Below, one piece after another: positions 1 to 4,420 of a DNA stretch of 64,000 nucleotides (the stretch's first letter is position 1; each line of letters opens with the position of its first letter). The notes beneath the pieces are model-generated. The model saw nothing but the letters and a program-made list of their open reading frames with translations, was not told where the DNA came from and made no database searches. This stretch comes from a virus (Duplodnaviria; Caudoviricetes), in IMG/VR virus record IMGVR_UViG_3300021400_001148, positions 1-64,000 of that record, one strand, 5' to 3'. Both the position numbers and the translations under genes were made by a program.

Positions 1-434
1 GCCAATGTTATTTCGTGCAACCCAATAACACCTTTGAGTGTTTGAAAACTTGACTATTAAATTAGTATACAGTTGCAATAAGCGAATAGACAGTGTGTAG
101 AGACTATCGAAAGACGGTAGCAATACCGAATCGAGTAGAGTACATGATGAGTCGCTGAGCGTCTTTGAGTGGAAATGGGAGGAACCTAAGTTGAAATTTG
201 GATTCTAAAATTAAAACAAAATTTTGCAGGAGGTGCCTGCTATTTGGGGTGAGAACGAACCCTAATCCAATCTTGCAAGATTTCAATATGGTTAAGATAT
301 AGTCCAGACCACAAACAAATACAAGATTGCAAGGAAACTAAGAAGTGGTGTTCTTAGCCGTTTGGAAGATAACGGTGGTGTAAACTACGGGCACAGGCTT
401 AAATGTATTTGGTAGTGAAAACTATAGTGGTAAG
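1..434 (+). ncRNA. Group I intron, 3' portion (5' end lies outside the window), interrupting tRNA-Leu
   Basis: GTGTAGAGACTAT (~95-107) and AAGATATAGTCC (294-305) give the conserved P7 pairing GACUA/UAGUC; there is no credible ORF; the terminal G434 directly precedes a tRNA 3' half. Confidence 0.85.
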
Positions 435-481
435 AGGAGCATGTTCCAAAAGGAGTGAGAGTTCGATTCTCTCCGGGCCCA
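435..481 (+). tRNA. tRNA-Leu(UAG) 3' exon
   Basis: AG-GA-GCATG (rest of anticodon loop and stem), long variable arm TCC-AAAA-GGA, T arm GAGAG-TTCGATT-CTCTC, acceptor strand CGGGCCC-A. The U^AG anticodon is inferred from the omega-G position and the U required at a group I 5' splice site. Confidence 0.75.
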
Positions 482-529
482 CTGATGTAAATTTCCTCAG
501 AATTGTTCAAAATTAAACAAAAGAAGAGT

Positions 530-865
530 ATGGCTGAAACAGAAACAATCGTAAGATACGCAGAACAGGAAAATATTTCCAAGAGACTTTATGTTCTGGT
601 TAACAAGAGGCTCAATTCCATTTATGGGTGCGTTCAGGGCGGTCACGCCGTGGCACAATGGCTTTTGGATAATCCTAAGCAAAAATGGAACAACGAATAT
701 CTTATTTATTTGTGGGCAGACACCGATAGGTGGATAAGCAAATTCGATGAACTCGGTATCAGGTATTCAGCATTCCGCGAGCCGGATTTAAATGGAACTG
801 TGACAGCGATTGCCTTGCAGGAAGACACGGGTCTTCTTTTCCAAAGTTTGGAAACAATCAAATAG
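530..865 (+). CDS. Peptidyl-tRNA hydrolase 2 (PTH2/PTRHD1)-like protein
   Basis: LYVLV...VQGGHAVAQ...FREPDL..TVTAIAL pattern of the PTH2 fold; located inside the tRNA cluster. Confidence 0.6.
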   Translation: MAETETIVRYAEQENISKRLYVLVNKRLNSIYGCVQGGHAVAQWLLDNPKQKWNNEYLIYLWADTDRWISKFDELGIRYSAFREPDLNGTVTAIALQEDTGLLFQSLETIK

Positions 866-875
866 TTTTTTTTTG

Positions 876-883
876 TATATTTG
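876..883 (+). promoter_or_regulatory. Bacteroidota-type -7 promoter element
   Basis: TATATTTG matches TAnnTTTG; it is followed by non-coding structured sequence and tRNAs. Confidence 0.7.
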
Positions 884-891
884 CAATACGG

Positions 892-1105
892 AGCACCAAT
901 GTGTTGGTCTAGTAGGGATTGGCGGATGGAGACGGACGAGCAACGAAACTATGAACCTGACCCTAACCAAAGTCTACCAACTTTGTGACAAAGACTCTAA
1001 TGGCAGTTTGGTGCTGACTATCAAATCTGGATGCATACAGTGATGGTAGCCTGACCGTTACATTCCCTATCTGGCAGTCAACGGGTGACAAATGACTGCC
1101 GTTTT
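892..1105 (+). ncRNA. Candidate structured ncRNA / tRNA leader
   Basis: Nested pairings AGCACCAA/TTGGTGCT, GTTGGT/ACCAAC and TAGGG/CCCTA; hairpin GGCAGTCA/TGACTGCC whose loop (AACGG) can pair with upstream CCGTT. Confidence 0.5.
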
Positions 1106-1106
1106 T

Positions 1107-1189
1107 GACTTAGTGGCGGAATGGTAGACGCGCCTGCCTCAAAAGCAGGTCCCAGAAGTGGGGTGTGGGTTCGACTCCCACTTGAGTCA
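1107..1189 (+). tRNA. tRNA-Leu(CAA)
   Basis: Acceptor GACTTAG/TTGAGTC, anticodon arm CCTGC-CTCAAAA-GCAGG, long variable arm, GTGGG-TTCGACT-CCCAC; CCA not encoded. Confidence 0.95.
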
Positions 1190-1207
1190 CATAATCTTTG
1201 GAAATAT

Positions 1208-1363
1208 GGCCTGCTGGGGGAATGGTAGACCCAATGGACTTAATTACTTGAAAGAAAACAAGTTAAACTGCTAGATAATATACACTATGGTTGGTTTGTA
1301 CCCAACATCTAGTCAATCCATCGGCCCGAATGGGCCATCTCGGTTCGAATCCGAGGCTGGCCA
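1208..1363 (+). tRNA. tRNA-Leu(TAA) with 71-nt intron (1244-1314)
   Basis: Removing 1244-1314 restores ATGGA-CTTAAAA-TCCAT; D arm, variable arm GGCCC-GAAT-GGGCC, T arm CTCGG-TTCGAAT-CCGAG and acceptor GGCCTGC/GCTGGCC are all intact. Confidence 0.85.
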
Positions 1364-1437
1364 CAAAAAGCGAACTTAAAAGGCGTAAATATTTATATTT
1401 TTAAGTTTTTCATATATTTATATGTAAAGATTACTAT

Positions 1438-2247
1438 ATGAGAAACACAACAAAAGAGGAGTATGAAACCGCCGCAAAAATATCGTTAAGTTATGCAGGA
1501 ATGTGTAGATACCTTGGACTTTCCCCGAGAGGAGGCAATTATGCAACAATAAAAAAGAAGATTAGGGAATATAATATTGATATCTCACATTTCACAGGGA
1601 AGGGTTGGAATGTTGGGTTGAGGTTTAGGCCACAAAAAACTTATAAGTTGGAGGAGGTTCTTCAAAAAGATTTTCCATACAACACACAAAGGCTTAAGAA
1701 CAGATTATTTGAAAGTGGATTAAAAGAAAAAAAATGCGAGTGTTGTGGACTGGATGCTTGGAATGGAAAAGAAATACCATTGGAGATACATCACATGAAT
1801 GGTGATAGAACAGATAATCGTATTGAAAACTTACAAATATTGTGTCCGAATTGTCACGCACAGACTGATGGGTATAGAGGAAAGAATAAAAATAGGTATG
1901 AAAAGAAAAAATGTATAAGCGATAAAGAATTGAAAGAAAAGTATGAGCAATATAAAGAAGCAATGTTAAAAAAAAGAGAGGTTAGGGAAAAAAAACGAAA
2001 ACAGAATATTAGATATTGTAAACATTGCGGAAAAGAATTAACCAGTAAGCAAAAAGTATATTGCAGTTGTAAATGCGCTCATGCTGAAGTGTCAAAAAAG
2101 CCATCCGATGAAGTATTAAATAAAAAAATAAAAGAACTTAATGGAAATATGTCAGCGGTTGGAAGATTTTATAATGTTTCAGAAACAGCGGTCAGAAAAT
2201 GGCTAAAATTAAATAATGCTCGAGTGGCCGAAGGGTGTGGTCTGTAA
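1438..2247 (+). CDS. HNH homing endonuclease
   Basis: CECCG...LEIHHMNGDRTDNRIENLQILCPNCHAQT; C-terminal zinc finger and HTH-like segment; AT-rich relative to its neighbours. Confidence 0.9.
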   Translation: MRNTTKEEYETAAKISLSYAGMCRYLGLSPRGGNYATIKKKIREYNIDISHFTGKGWNVGLRFRPQKTYKLEEVLQKDFPYNTQRLKNRLFESGLKEKKCECCGLDAWNGKEIPLEIHHMNGDRTDNRIENLQILCPNCHAQTDGYRGKNKNRYEKKKCISDKELKEKYEQYKEAMLKKREVREKKRKQNIRYCKHCGKELTSKQKVYCSCKCAHAEVSKKPSDEVLNKKIKELNGNMSAVGRFYNVSETAVRKWLKLNNARVAEGCGL

Positions 2248-2282
2248 ATCACGATTTATGAGTTCAACTCCCACCCGGGGTA
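2218..2282 (+). pseudogene. Degenerate tRNA remnant (Cys/Tyr-like)
   Basis: GCTCGAG-TGGCCGAAGG...GTGGT-CTGTAA-ATCAC...GAG-TTCAACTC; D arm, anticodon loop and acceptor stem are damaged; overlaps the 3' end of the HNH ORF. Confidence 0.45.
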
Positions 2283-2324
2283 CAAAATTCAGTGACAAAC
2301 TATTTATGACAAAATGATTGGATT

Positions 2325-2741
2325 ATGCCAAAAATAGTTTTAAACGAATCTCAATTACATAAAATAGTATCCGAATCCGTTAAAAGGATTTTGAAAGAAT
2401 ATTTCAATCGGCATCCCTATGACTTGGAACTGGACACATATGAGATTTTTGAAAAATACCTGGGTGAGATGGCACCGGATGACGGATGGTGTGAAGATTA
2501 CATCAATGTGAAAGTGACTGCTGAGAGGGGAAGACACGACAAGGGTGACCACTGGACACCACCATATGACGAAGGTTGGCTTTTTACTGGTGTTGAAAGA
2601 TGGGATGAAGAACAACTGGGCCGGCTCTCGGAGCAATCCGGAAAAAGCGTGGAGGAGATTAAATCCGCCACAGTAAATTACATTCAGGATAATTGGGAAG
2701 AGTATCAGGAAGATATTTATCAATACGAACAATGGTATTAG
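2325..2741 (+). CDS. Hypothetical protein with N-terminal LNESQL..VKRILKE propeptide-like motif (possible internal head protein)
   Basis: N-terminal (I/L)xE repeats; TATTTAT motif at 2301-2307. Confidence 0.55.
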   Translation: MPKIVLNESQLHKIVSESVKRILKEYFNRHPYDLELDTYEIFEKYLGEMAPDDGWCEDYINVKVTAERGRHDKGDHWTPPYDEGWLFTGVERWDEEQLGRLSEQSGKSVEEIKSATVNYIQDNWEEYQEDIYQYEQWY

Positions 2742-2750
2742 AAGTTTTTG

Positions 2751-2774
2751 TATATTTGTAATGCTCTTTGAAAA
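2751..2774 (+). promoter_or_regulatory. -7 promoter plus boxA-like antitermination element
   Basis: TATATTTG (2751-2758) followed by TGCTCTTTGAAAA (2762-2774). Confidence 0.6.
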
Positions 2775-2781
2775 ATAAAAT

Positions 2782-3239
2782 ACGCTTCACCCTATAATAT
2801 AGTAGGGACTTGCCAAGCAGTAACGAGGCAAACGGGTGGATGACCGAGGAGAGATTCATAAACGATGGCTTAATCGCCTACGGCCTGTTTAAGAAACCAA
2901 CCGCGCGAAGAATTGATGTTGGGCTGCTCGTGAGACTTGTATTCAGAAACATAATTCATAAATTCTGAAAGAAGCGCCTTGCCAACAGGTGGGTAAAACC
3001 TTGTAAAGAAACAAACAAAAAGGGGCTATATTATAGCCAGCAAACCAGAGCCCCTGAACCTCGTAAACGCCCCGACCGCCTTATGCAAAGGGGGAGGTGA
3101 CAGACCATTGGGTAATTCCATAGAAGCGCTGTTAGGCTGGTTTCATTTCCAAAGGTAATGCAATCCTCGTACAGAACCGCAAGGACAGGCGGTGCTCCGG
3201 ACAGCCGAGGTTCCTCAGTCGCAGCGATGTAACAAGCGT
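2782..3239 (+). ncRNA. Large (~460 nt) highly structured ncRNA (GOLLD/ROOL-like or new class)
   Basis: No ORF of 60 aa or more on + strand; closing stem ACGCTT/AAGCGT; many internal helices; own promoter and terminator. Confidence 0.7.
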
Positions 3240-3248
3240 TTATTTTTC

Positions 3249-3284
3249 CGCATCCGGATATGTCCTCCGGGTGCGTTTTTTTTT
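3249..3284 (+). terminator. Intrinsic terminator
   Basis: CGCATCCGGA-loop-TCCGGGTGCG followed by a T9 run. Confidence 0.85.
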
Positions 3285-3292
3285 ATTGTTTC

Positions 3293-3334
3293 GCGCCGAA
3301 CCTTGCCAAAATTAAATCATTTTTTGTATATTTG
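3293..3334 (+). promoter_or_regulatory. GCGCC-N29-TAnnTTTG promoter
   Basis: GCGCC at 3293, TATATTTG at 3327 (offset 34). Confidence 0.7.
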
Positions 3335-3370
3335 TTTTCGGAAGTTAAAAACCTGAAAAATTAACAGTTT

Positions 3371-4420
3371 ATGAATCGTAGATTTGGCGTACAATCAACA
3401 GGTGTTGTCTGCCCAATTATTAGAGAGGGGGATGACATTGTCAATGTTATCACAAGTGCCATTCCAATGTCTGATATTGAAAATGGTGAAATTTTTGGAA
3501 TTACTGAAAGTGTCGTTGCAAGAGCCGCCGGCCTTTATGTGACAGTGGATGAAATTGCTGATGATATCCGGGCAAAATACGGTAATAATTCAACAATTGT
3601 TGTTGACGCTCCGATTTATTCCCGTAACAGATTTTCTATGATACTCAAAGGGATTGCAAGGGCTGCTGACATGGTAATTCTTGGTATGCCGGCGTTTGAC
3701 GAGGTAGGAAACCCCAGTGGAGTGAATCCGTTTACCGGTGTGGATATTGAAGCTTATTATAGGGAAATTATTGAATCCGAGGGTGCAAAATGTCGTGTTG
3801 TTAACGAGGTGGTTTCCGCGTTGGCTGAGCCGCACCTGCAGTTCTACCAAAATATTATCTATTGTGGGCTGCACGACTTCGACGAGTTTAGGAAAAAGTA
3901 CAAAGATGTTCCCACATACTATACTCTTGCCGATATTTGCTCAGACAAAAATCCTGATTTCGGGCTTCTTGGCTCCAACAAAGCAACAGAAGAGCGACTT
4001 AAATTGTTTCCCACCAAAGCCTTGGCTACGGAGGTGTGTTATAAGGTGCAAGAACATGTGAAGAAAGTGACAGGCAAGGATGTATATGTGTGCTGCTACG
4101 GGGACGGTTGCTTTAAAGATGCCGTTGGGGGTATCTGGGAGTTTGCCGACCCAGTTTCAATGCCCGGGTATACAAATCCTGAGGTTTTCGAGTCAACACC
4201 TAATGAAGTGAAACTCAAAGCCCTCATCGATGAGAGTGAAAATGATGAGGAGGTAAGGCGAAAAGTTGAGGAAAAGAAAGCCAATCTGAAGGGCCAGATG
4301 ATATCAATGGGTACAACACCTAGACTTATAAGAGACCTTCTTGCTTCCCTTATGGACCTCACCAGTGGTTCTGGTGATAGACAGACTCCTCTTGTTTGGG
4401 TTCGTGGCTATTTTAACTAG
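3371..4420 (+). CDS. Coenzyme F420-0:L-glutamate ligase (CofE)-like protein
   Basis: PIIREGDD...GITESVVARA...GDG...DLLASLMDLTSGSGDRQTPLVWVRGYF motifs. Confidence 0.8.
   Translation: MNRRFGVQSTGVVCPIIREGDDIVNVITSAIPMSDIENGEIFGITESVVARAAGLYVTVDEIADDIRAKYGNNSTIVVDAPIYSRNRFSMILKGIARAADMVILGMPAFDEVGNPSGVNPFTGVDIEAYYREIIESEGAKCRVVNEVVSALAEPHLQFYQNIIYCGLHDFDEFRKKYKDVPTYYTLADICSDKNPDFGLLGSNKATEERLKLFPTKALATEVCYKVQEHVKKVTGKDVYVCCYGDGCFKDAVGGIWEFADPVSMPGYTNPEVFESTPNEVKLKALIDESENDEEVRRKVEEKKANLKGQMISMGTTPRLIRDLLASLMDLTSGSGDRQTPLVWVRGYFN

Follow-up and report, generated by a model that had tools for sequence, protein, structure and literature searches.

A short anticodon-loop insert with a leader hairpin and a tRNA-shaped module in a tRNA-Leu(UAA) gene of a ruminant gut phage

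The stretch of DNA that was analysed, referred to here as the window, comprises the first 64,000 nt of a phage record of 354,809 bp with a G+C content of 41%; this phage turns up in ruminant gut metagenomes. Near the left end of the window lies an array of leucine tRNA genes, followed by a free-standing gene for an HNH endonuclease (Table 1). An earlier note, made from the sequence alone, had pointed out that the three leucine isoacceptors are in three different intron states, and this was borne out: tRNA-Leu(UAG) is split by a group I intron of approx. 630 nt, tRNA-Leu(CAA) is intact, and tRNA-Leu(UAA) carries an insert of 71 nt. The 5' exon of tRNA-Leu(UAG) is not at the end of this assembly; it is located on contig L005, which belongs to another haplotype of the same phage and represents the true upstream neighbourhood of the locus. 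The order of the array in L005 is Leu(AAG), Leu(UAG) with its group I intron, an ncRNA, Leu(CAA), the interrupted Leu(UAA) and the HNH gene, and its upstream neighbourhood differs from that of the record in having about ten more tRNA genes. The record also has a 99-bp 'direct terminal repeat' (window 1-99, genome 354711-354809), which is contained in the conserved core of each of two group I introns, those of tRNA-Lys(UUU) (genome 354463) and tRNA-Leu(UAG). The circular closure of the record therefore looks like an assembly join made via this repeat and, since the repeat sits in a group I core that is common to two introns, the record skips part of the tRNA array.

Table 1. Features of the interrupted tRNA-Leu(UAA) locus and of the phage RNA ligase cluster (window positions unless marked as genome)
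Feature	Position	Strand	Basis or remark
Group I intron, 3' part, and 3' exon of tRNA-Leu(UAG)	1-481	+	3' exon at 435-480
tRNA-Leu(CAA), uninterrupted	1107-1190	+	ARAGORN, Rfam; 17 nt upstream of tRNA-Leu(UAA)
tRNA-Leu(UAA), interrupted	1208-1363	+	ARAGORN -i, sequence
5' exon: acceptor 5' strand, D arm, anticodon stem 5' strand, loop 32-36 (CUUAA)	1208-1243	+	ARAGORN -i, sequence, resemblance of this half to intact Leu(UAA) in L008
Spacer UU, two bases, ahead of the leader hairpin	1244-1245	+	Sequence; 2 nt in most family members
Leader hairpin ACUUG/CAAGU, loop AAAGAAAA	1246-1263	+	Fold; opens with AC, closes with GU
A-rich linker UAAACU	1264-1269	+	Sequence; would be the 5' leader of the tRNA-like module
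tRNA top-half mimic	1270-1313	+	Covariance model R1 and matches in other phages; covariation; shuffle test
Acceptor-like helix of the mimic, 7 bp, GCUAGAU/AUCUAGU	1270-1276 with 1307-1313	+	
Internal linker of the mimic, 13 nt, starts AAUA	1277-1289	+	
T-like arm of the mimic, 5-bp stem GUUGG/CCAAC, 7-nt loop UUUGUAC	1290-1294 with 1302-1306	+	
Single unpaired C, last base of the insert, tRNA-discriminator position	1314	+	Sequence
3' exon: loop 37-38 (AA), anticodon stem 3' strand, long variable arm, T arm, acceptor 3' strand, A73	1315-1363	+	Sequence (no CCA encoded)
HNH endonuclease gene, free-standing	1438-2247	+	Pfam; 75 nt downstream of tRNA-Leu(UAA)
Three adjacent genes: RlaP-like nucleotidyltransferase (226 aa), Rnl2-like RNA ligase (301 aa), Rnl1-like RNA ligase (351 aa)	genome 72,079-74,764		Outside the window
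The two RNA ligase genes of this cluster	genome 72,804-73,709 and 73,709-74,764		

Three metatranscriptome contig sets and one DNA set were compared with window 1-3400, and the group I intron and two ncRNAs are represented among the RNA contigs, whereas the tRNAs are not. One of these regions, window 896-1087, has no ORF and lies between a Bacteroidota-type promoter motif (TATATTTG) and tRNA-Leu(CAA); an exact contig of 192 nt was recovered from a gut metatranscriptome. In relatives, its place is taken by a suppressor tRNA (CUA or UCA), directly after the homologue of ORF 530-865. The other region, window 2776-3191, is likewise devoid of ORFs, is represented by RNA contigs in three metatranscriptome runs (exact, 357 and 379 nt) and is probably an expressed structured ncRNA.

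The interrupted tRNA-Leu(UAA) is missed by ARAGORN in its default mode and also by Rfam. With the -i option, ARAGORN reports a tRNA at 1208-1364 with a 71-nt insert in the anticodon loop, which is placed 2 nt leftward so that the gene is mislabelled 'Glu(ttc)'. The body is that of a class II tRNA, with a 7-bp acceptor stem that includes one U.U mismatch (at 5-68), a Leu-type D arm, a long variable arm, the canonical T-loop TTCGAAT and A73. The loop CUUAAAA is obtained in a single register, with exon 1 ending at A1243, the insert at 1244-1314 and exon 2 starting at A1315. The uninterrupted tRNA-Leu(UAA) present at the same place in L008 and L013 shows the loop YUUAAAA, and the joined anticodon arm, taken as a 21-mer, has an exact match in 132 unrelated environmental tRNA-Leu(UAA) genes. 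These 132 genes have only the D and anticodon arms in common with the phage gene, and no intron-less allele of this tRNA was found among them; exact-pattern scans of IMG/VR and the JGI metagenomes for the exons or the insert gave no matches. Since the body and its unique register give a canonical Leu(UAA) arm, the earlier description of an otherwise intact tRNA that is split between positions 36 and 37 stands.

From its 5' end, the insert is composed of a spacer, a leader hairpin, a linker, a module that mimics the top half of a tRNA (acceptor stem and T arm) and a single C. The two hairpins previously described are therefore both present; the second one, however, is not a plain hairpin, given that it forms an acceptor/T-arm mimic with a discriminator-like C behind it. 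In this module the T-like arm is followed directly by the 3' strand of the 7-bp helix; the geometry of the helices is that of a tRNA top half, and the sequence of the T-like loop is not that of a canonical T-loop. The folding energy of the insert is not significant (z = -1.66 and +0.28). On the other hand, a 3' module of the same kind, defined as a 7-bp helix directly followed by an arm of 5 bp with a 7-nt loop and ending 0-2 nt from the end of the insert, rarely arises by chance (118 of 200,000 shuffles of the insert). A pairing of the 3' end of the insert (AGTC) with GACT of the anticodon arm had also been suggested; this pairing competes with the helix that covaries in relatives and no member of the family needs it, and the suggestion was not supported. 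The insert is single-copy, without repeats or mobile copies in the phage genome.

The insert had initially been treated as a one-off, a view that did not hold, since the same design is present in other gut phages and in the published introns of the Lak phages. A scan with ARAGORN -i of 91 loci from related gut and rumen jumbo phages called inserts in 138 of 1312 tRNAs, approx. 36 of them of group I size and approx. 100 of 200 nt or less, some of these short calls being certainly artefacts. One design was met repeatedly in the short inserts: a spacer of one to three bases, a hairpin beginning with AC and ending with GU (e.g., ACAG/CUGU, ACGG/CCGU or ACUUG/CAAGU), a linker, a tRNA-like module and one base before exon 2. 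The linker is either A-rich, as in the corresponding place of the window insert, or pairs with the loop of the hairpin as a pseudoknot; the module can be a near-whole cloverleaf or the acceptor/T-arm half alone; and the last base is unpaired and usually C. Under strict criteria, the AC..GT leader was found in 14 of 51 short inserts versus 93 of 2040 shuffles and the tRNA-like 3' module in 9 of 51 versus 18 of 2040, and both elements occur together in 6 of 51 short inserts as compared with a single case among the 2040 shuffles. A looser scan for 'minihelices' in which G.U pairs were allowed returned mostly chance matches and was discarded.

A covariance model (R1) was built from the top-half modules of the window insert, of a tRNA-Tyr insert (L022) and of a tRNA-Pro insert (L017), and beyond these seeds it matched two more tRNA-Pro genes, which brings the tRNA-Pro cases to three phages, and one stand-alone element. 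The alignment used was that of the model, given that MAFFT misaligned the whole inserts as well as the six modules. In this alignment, each of the 83 pair cells holds a standard pair and each of the 12 pairs has changed in both strands, as compared with 29-47% pairing in slid controls; these counts are partly circular and lean towards structure, because the seeds were picked with a pairing filter and the later sequences by the model itself. Independent support for the module comes from traits that took no part in the selection, i.e., the AAUA linker that the modules have in common, the leader in front of them and their position inside anticodon loops. In the three tRNA-Pro introns an eighth base pair also covaries (A-U, G-C and U-A), and exon 2 is still preceded by the single C. 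The stand-alone element (L096:1501-1543) is a top-half module with the helix GCCGUGU/ACACGGC and the loop UUCGAAU, located after a tRNA-Gly(GCC) gene of a 412-kb phage.

The anticodons assigned by ARAGORN to interrupted genes are unreliable, and for this reason the identity of these tRNAs was established by joining the exons and seeking the nearest intact tRNA. A gene called 'Ala' is really Pro(UGG), with an intact homologue 97% identical that fixes the junction; by the same approach 'Arg(CCU)' and 'Met' proved to be Met(CAU), 'Ser' to be Asn(GUU), 'Cys' to be Phe(GAA) and 'Ile' to be Gln(UUG). Standard tRNA finders thus miss or misname such genes, as also seen with 'Glu' for the Leu gene of the window, and in consequence phage tRNA inventories, and the inferences on codon use or recoding that are drawn from them, are biased.

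The junctions that could be fixed from intact homologues, on which the family spacer lengths are based, reveal a simple rule. The position of the insert in the anticodon loop varies from gene to gene (34/35, 35/36 or 36/37); nevertheless, in most cases the insert starts approx. 2 nt before the leader hairpin and ends approx. 1 nt after the acceptor-like helix. The window insert follows this spacing, with 2 and 1 nt, and the exception is the Tyr intron of L022, which has two to three bases after the helix. When the exons are joined, the junctions of the family always yield a loop of 7 nt whose anticodon agrees with the body. Because the position in the loop varies while the distance to the helices stays, the cut sites seem to track the structure of the intron and not the body of the tRNA.

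Other short inserts were observed in these phages. A second short-insert tRNA of the same phage is located at L005:2748-2881, i.e., in the other haplotype and in the region missing from the record; its insert of 61 nt carries the leader ACGG-AGUGGUUCA-CCGU, whose loop sequence GUUC can pair with a downstream GAAC, and the gene can be read in two ways, since an insert placed at 35/36 gives Lys(UUU) and one placed at 37/38 gives a UUA suppressor. Short anticodon-loop inserts of 25-60 nt without a tRNA-like part also recur in loci L016-L091. In one family, seen in Glu, Ile, Pro, Tyr, His and a UCA suppressor, UAACAGCAAU stands between a hairpin and exon 2, inserts of a second family end in CGUUUCCGU, and the third is a form of 51-54 nt found in tRNA-Asn.

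The nearest relatives of the phage, L008 and L013, are 83% and 81% identical, respectively, in a neighbouring protein of 111 aa. Both have an intact tRNA-Leu(UAA) at the same place and lack the HNH gene, and from the uninterrupted tRNA it follows that the insert is a recent gain in this lineage. These relatives also carry, between Leu(CAA) and Leu(UAA), a class II tRNA of 88 nt with the anticodon UAU (L008:6578-6665 and L013:1866-1953), an unusual combination of body and anticodon that is absent from this phage. The only other copies of the window insert belong to one near-identical haplotype, so that two haplotypes are known, that of the window and that of L005, L006 and L007, which come from three other samples. 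They differ by approx. 6% in the flanking ORFs (460-778 and 2308-2717), and at only two to three sites within 779-2307, a block of 1.5 kb that includes the ncRNA, both Leu tRNAs and the HNH gene. This block looks like a recently exchanged cassette, and the exchange was possibly driven by the endonuclease; for this reason, little about selection can be deduced from finding the insert identical in both haplotypes. A fixed partnership of the HNH gene with interrupted tRNAs was considered and rejected, since its homologues are dispersed over tRNA arrays and are found near intact genes as well as near interrupted ones, without a clear surplus near the latter. A DNA contig from a bovine gut run (X3) matches the window only between 1251, where the loop of the leader hairpin begins, and approx. 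1370; left of the match, 255 nt or more of the contig are A/T-rich and unrelated. The contig may derive from another phage whose intron shares the 3' part, or it may be a chimeric contig.

The earlier note proposed that maturation of this tRNA needs an unknown protein nuclease/ligase route or trans-splicing and that the insert could mask the anticodon from host anticodon nucleases, and recommended a search of the genome for RtcB, RNA ligase or EndA-like genes. The need for a protein-based or otherwise unknown route is supported, and the second hairpin, as an acceptor/T-arm mimic with a discriminator-like C, points to RNase P and RNase Z more than to a wholly unknown nuclease. The genome search was positive for the ligases, i.e., the Rnl2-like and Rnl1-like genes of Table 1, which together with the adjacent RlaP-like gene form what looks like an RNA repair or ligation cassette; EndA, RtcB and Trl1 were not found in the phage genome, nor was an RNase Z-like metallo-beta-lactamase. 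An AAA_33 kinase-like ORF is present at genome 268997-269395.

From these elements, the insert is tentatively regarded as a real intervening sequence of the class formed by a leader hairpin and a tRNA-shaped module, in which the shape of the intron would guide excision by proteins, followed by ligation; this is the reading favoured here, held at somewhat less than even confidence. The enzymatic steps described below, and splicing itself, are inferred from the sequence. The tRNA top-half mimic at the 3' end of the intron would be handled like a pre-tRNA. Bacterial tRNA precursors that lack an encoded CCA are cut by RNase Z after the discriminator and, as no CCA is encoded here, the host should mature these tRNAs via RNase Z. 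A cut of this type after the discriminator-like C1314 would leave exon 2 with a 5' phosphate, and RNase P would cut in front of G1270. These two cuts alone would leave on exon 1 the 26 nt that make up spacer, leader and linker, and therefore the end of exon 1 would require a further nuclease, acting just behind A1243 and hence two bases ahead of the leader hairpin. Recognition by RNase P or RNase Z may be poor, because the T-like loop is not canonical. The exons, kept together by the tRNA body, would then be sealed in the anticodon loop by one of the two phage RNA ligases; a 3'-OH on exon 1 and a 5' phosphate on exon 2 within a folded tRNA would be a natural substrate for ligases of the Rnl1/Rnl2 type. 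The expected product reads GGACUUAA followed at the junction by AAUCCAU, and the 31-mer that spans the junction would be GGACUUAA joined to AAUCCAUCGG. Taken as a whole, the scheme would amount to a third route of tRNA splicing in bacteria or their phages, based on a tRNA-shaped handle plus leader, the ordinary end-processing enzymes RNase P and RNase Z, a further nuclease and an Rnl-type phage ligase, which would act at whatever place of the anticodon loop the intron occupies; this broader proposal is a possibility to which somewhat less credence is given than to the reading favoured above. If true, it could give the phage timed control over its usable tRNAs.

Several other explanations were weighed against this reading, and among them those that assign the insert to a known type of intron fare worst. 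That it is the remnant of a group I intron whose core was lost by deletion could be argued from the group I introns in neighbouring tRNAs of the same phage and from the fact that tRNA-Leu(UAA) is a classic host gene of such introns. Nevertheless, Rfam searches of the insert, both at the gathering threshold and at E<=10, gave no match, including none to RF00028; the conserved catalytic core (P3-P7 with the guanosine-binding site) was not found in it, and when aligned locally with five group I introns from this group of phages it scored no better than shuffles. The ends do not conform to the group I rule either, as exon 1 ends in A and not U and the intron in C and not G, and the alternative U...G register results in a Leu body with the anticodon UUC (Glu). 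The insert is located at 36/37 and not at 34/35, and both its modules match a different, recurrent family. The earlier view that it is no group I or II intron, based on its terminal C and on a length far too short for a ribozyme core, is supported, and descent from a group I intron is very improbable. An intron of the archaeal/eukaryal type, cut by the splicing endonuclease at a bulge-helix-bulge, is even less credible. Its location in the anticodon loop and the lack of a conserved splice-site sequence would suit such an intron; however, the motif (two 3-nt bulges around a 4-bp helix) is absent from the splice sites, where the predicted folds show a three-way junction, in agreement with the previous assessment that the geometry is not canonical. 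Against it also count the position at 36/37 instead of 37/38, the phage genome without EndA and RtcB, and the tRNA-Tyr of a relative, which is class II, i.e., of the bacterial type. Somewhat less remote, and still improbable, is that the insert, or the leader within it, belongs to a new class of small RNAs that cleave or splice themselves. The HDV-like ribozyme fold includes the P3 and P1.1 elements, which are missing in the leader. This leader is conserved, relatives can form an H-type pseudoknot between its loop and the downstream linker, and small HDV-like 'theta' ribozymes process tRNAs in gut phages (PMC10879173); on the other hand, it is only approx. 26 nt long, its loop in this copy (AAAGAAAA) has no pseudoknot partner, and no Rfam ribozyme matched at E<=10.

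The remaining alternatives accept the tRNA-like module and dispense with splicing. According to one of them, the gene has died or does not serve as a tRNA: its anticodon loop would have received a mobile element of tRNA-like shape, which RNase P and RNase Z would cut out with no ligation afterwards, the products being a small tRNA-like RNA and two tRNA halves, and which the neighbouring HNH endonuclease would perhaps carry or protect. The relatives at 81-83% identity that lack the insert also lack the HNH gene, the block 779-2307, with two to three differences against approx. 6% in its flanks, looks like a recent cassette transfer, a top-half module can stand alone (L096), and the acceptor stem has a U.U mismatch, all of which speak for such an element. 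Against this, the same architecture is found in many different tRNAs that have intact bodies and close uninterrupted homologues, the tRNA-Pro version persists through divergence with compensatory changes, the junctions always restore a 7-nt loop with the anticodon that matches the body, and HNH genes are found throughout the tRNA arrays with no clear excess beside the interrupted ones. A dead gene is considered unlikely, while being the most serious of the competitors. The other alternative takes the unspliced RNA as the product, i.e., a tRNA look-alike whose anticodon domain is enlarged and that would act as a decoy or sponge, for instance for host anticodon nucleases or tRNA-modifying enzymes. 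The retention of the tRNA body and of the Leu identity element A73 would be in keeping with it, and phage ligases of the tRNA-repair type suggest a conflict over tRNA; nevertheless, the same design is present in tRNAs of many specificities and at differing loop positions, which is hard to fit to one target enzyme, and this possibility is rated about as low as that of a new self-cleaving RNA.

If the insert is spliced as proposed, it would represent a protein-based splicing of phage tRNAs distinct both from self-splicing and from the archaeal/eukaryal endonuclease type, and the textbook view that all bacterial tRNA introns are ribozymes would change. The class has been in print since 2019 with no explanation given. 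The copy in the window is a convenient substrate for a direct test, as it is small, its junction is unambiguous, and candidate ligases are encoded in the same genome.

The closest known counterparts are the 'enigmatic', highly conserved tRNA introns described by Devoto et al. (2019) in the Lak megaphages of Prevotella, one of which may itself encode a tRNA (PMC6784885, Fig. 4); their sequences are printed in Table S6 with the statement 'no hit in rfam'. A 2026 survey likewise reported jumbo-phage tRNA introns that 'could encode another tRNA' (PMC13037316), and in the literature found, which describes such introns without setting out their architecture, neither a mechanism nor a junction rule for them had been proposed or tested. 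By its sequence features, the window insert is another case of this published class of 'leader + tRNA-like' introns. Like it, the Lak introns are inserts in the anticodon loop, of approx. 70-95 nt and without an Rfam match, and their Phe and 'Tyr' representatives have a hairpin at a distance of 1-3 nt from the exon, followed by a linker rich in A and a module of tRNA-like shape. The Lak Phe(GAA) intron begins after CUGAA of the exon with UUA-ACAG-aguaaa-CUGU, continues with an A-rich linker and a tRNA-like module with the loop UUCGAUU, and ends in ...GAGA-C directly before the AA of exon 2, so that it shares with the window insert the single C at the end; the 'Tyr' intron starts with ACAGG-aaacaa-CCUG (PMC6784885). 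Both kinds of phage share the gut habitat. On the other hand, this phage, with 355 kb and 41% G+C, contrasts with the Lak phages, with approx. 540 kb and 26%; unlike them, it shows no sign of stop-codon recoding, and in its insert the tRNA-like part is cut down to the top half with a degenerate T-loop sequence.

The group I intron of tRNA-Leu(UAA) in cyanobacteria and plastids (PMC3984707) interrupts the same gene in the same loop; however, such introns have at least 200 nt and are located at 34/35, whereas the insert has 71 nt, is located at 36/37 and possesses neither a catalytic core, nor a terminal G, nor a U at the end of exon 1. With the bulge-helix-bulge introns of archaea and eukaryotes, which depend on EndA/Sen and on RtcB or Trl1, it would share the condition of a short, protein-dependent intron of the anticodon loop whose exons are kept together by the tRNA body. 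It differs from them in the lack of the motif and of a phage EndA or RtcB, in its bacterial host, and in that the cuts are apparently set by the tRNA mimic of the intron. An embedded tRNA-shaped module that recruits RNase P and RNase Z is known from mascRNA, at the 3' end of MALAT1, and from the tRNA-miRNA precursors of MHV68; these handles release their products without re-joining the flanks, while here ligation across the gap would be needed. In phage T4, Pnkp heals and Rnl1 seals the cut that PrrC makes in the anticodon loop. What is mended there is one nick, inflicted by a host toxin, whereas in the present case 71 nt would first have to be removed; the likeness lies in the break in the anticodon loop and in a phage ligase of the Rnl1 type, of which this phage has an Rnl1-like gene next to an Rnl2-like one.
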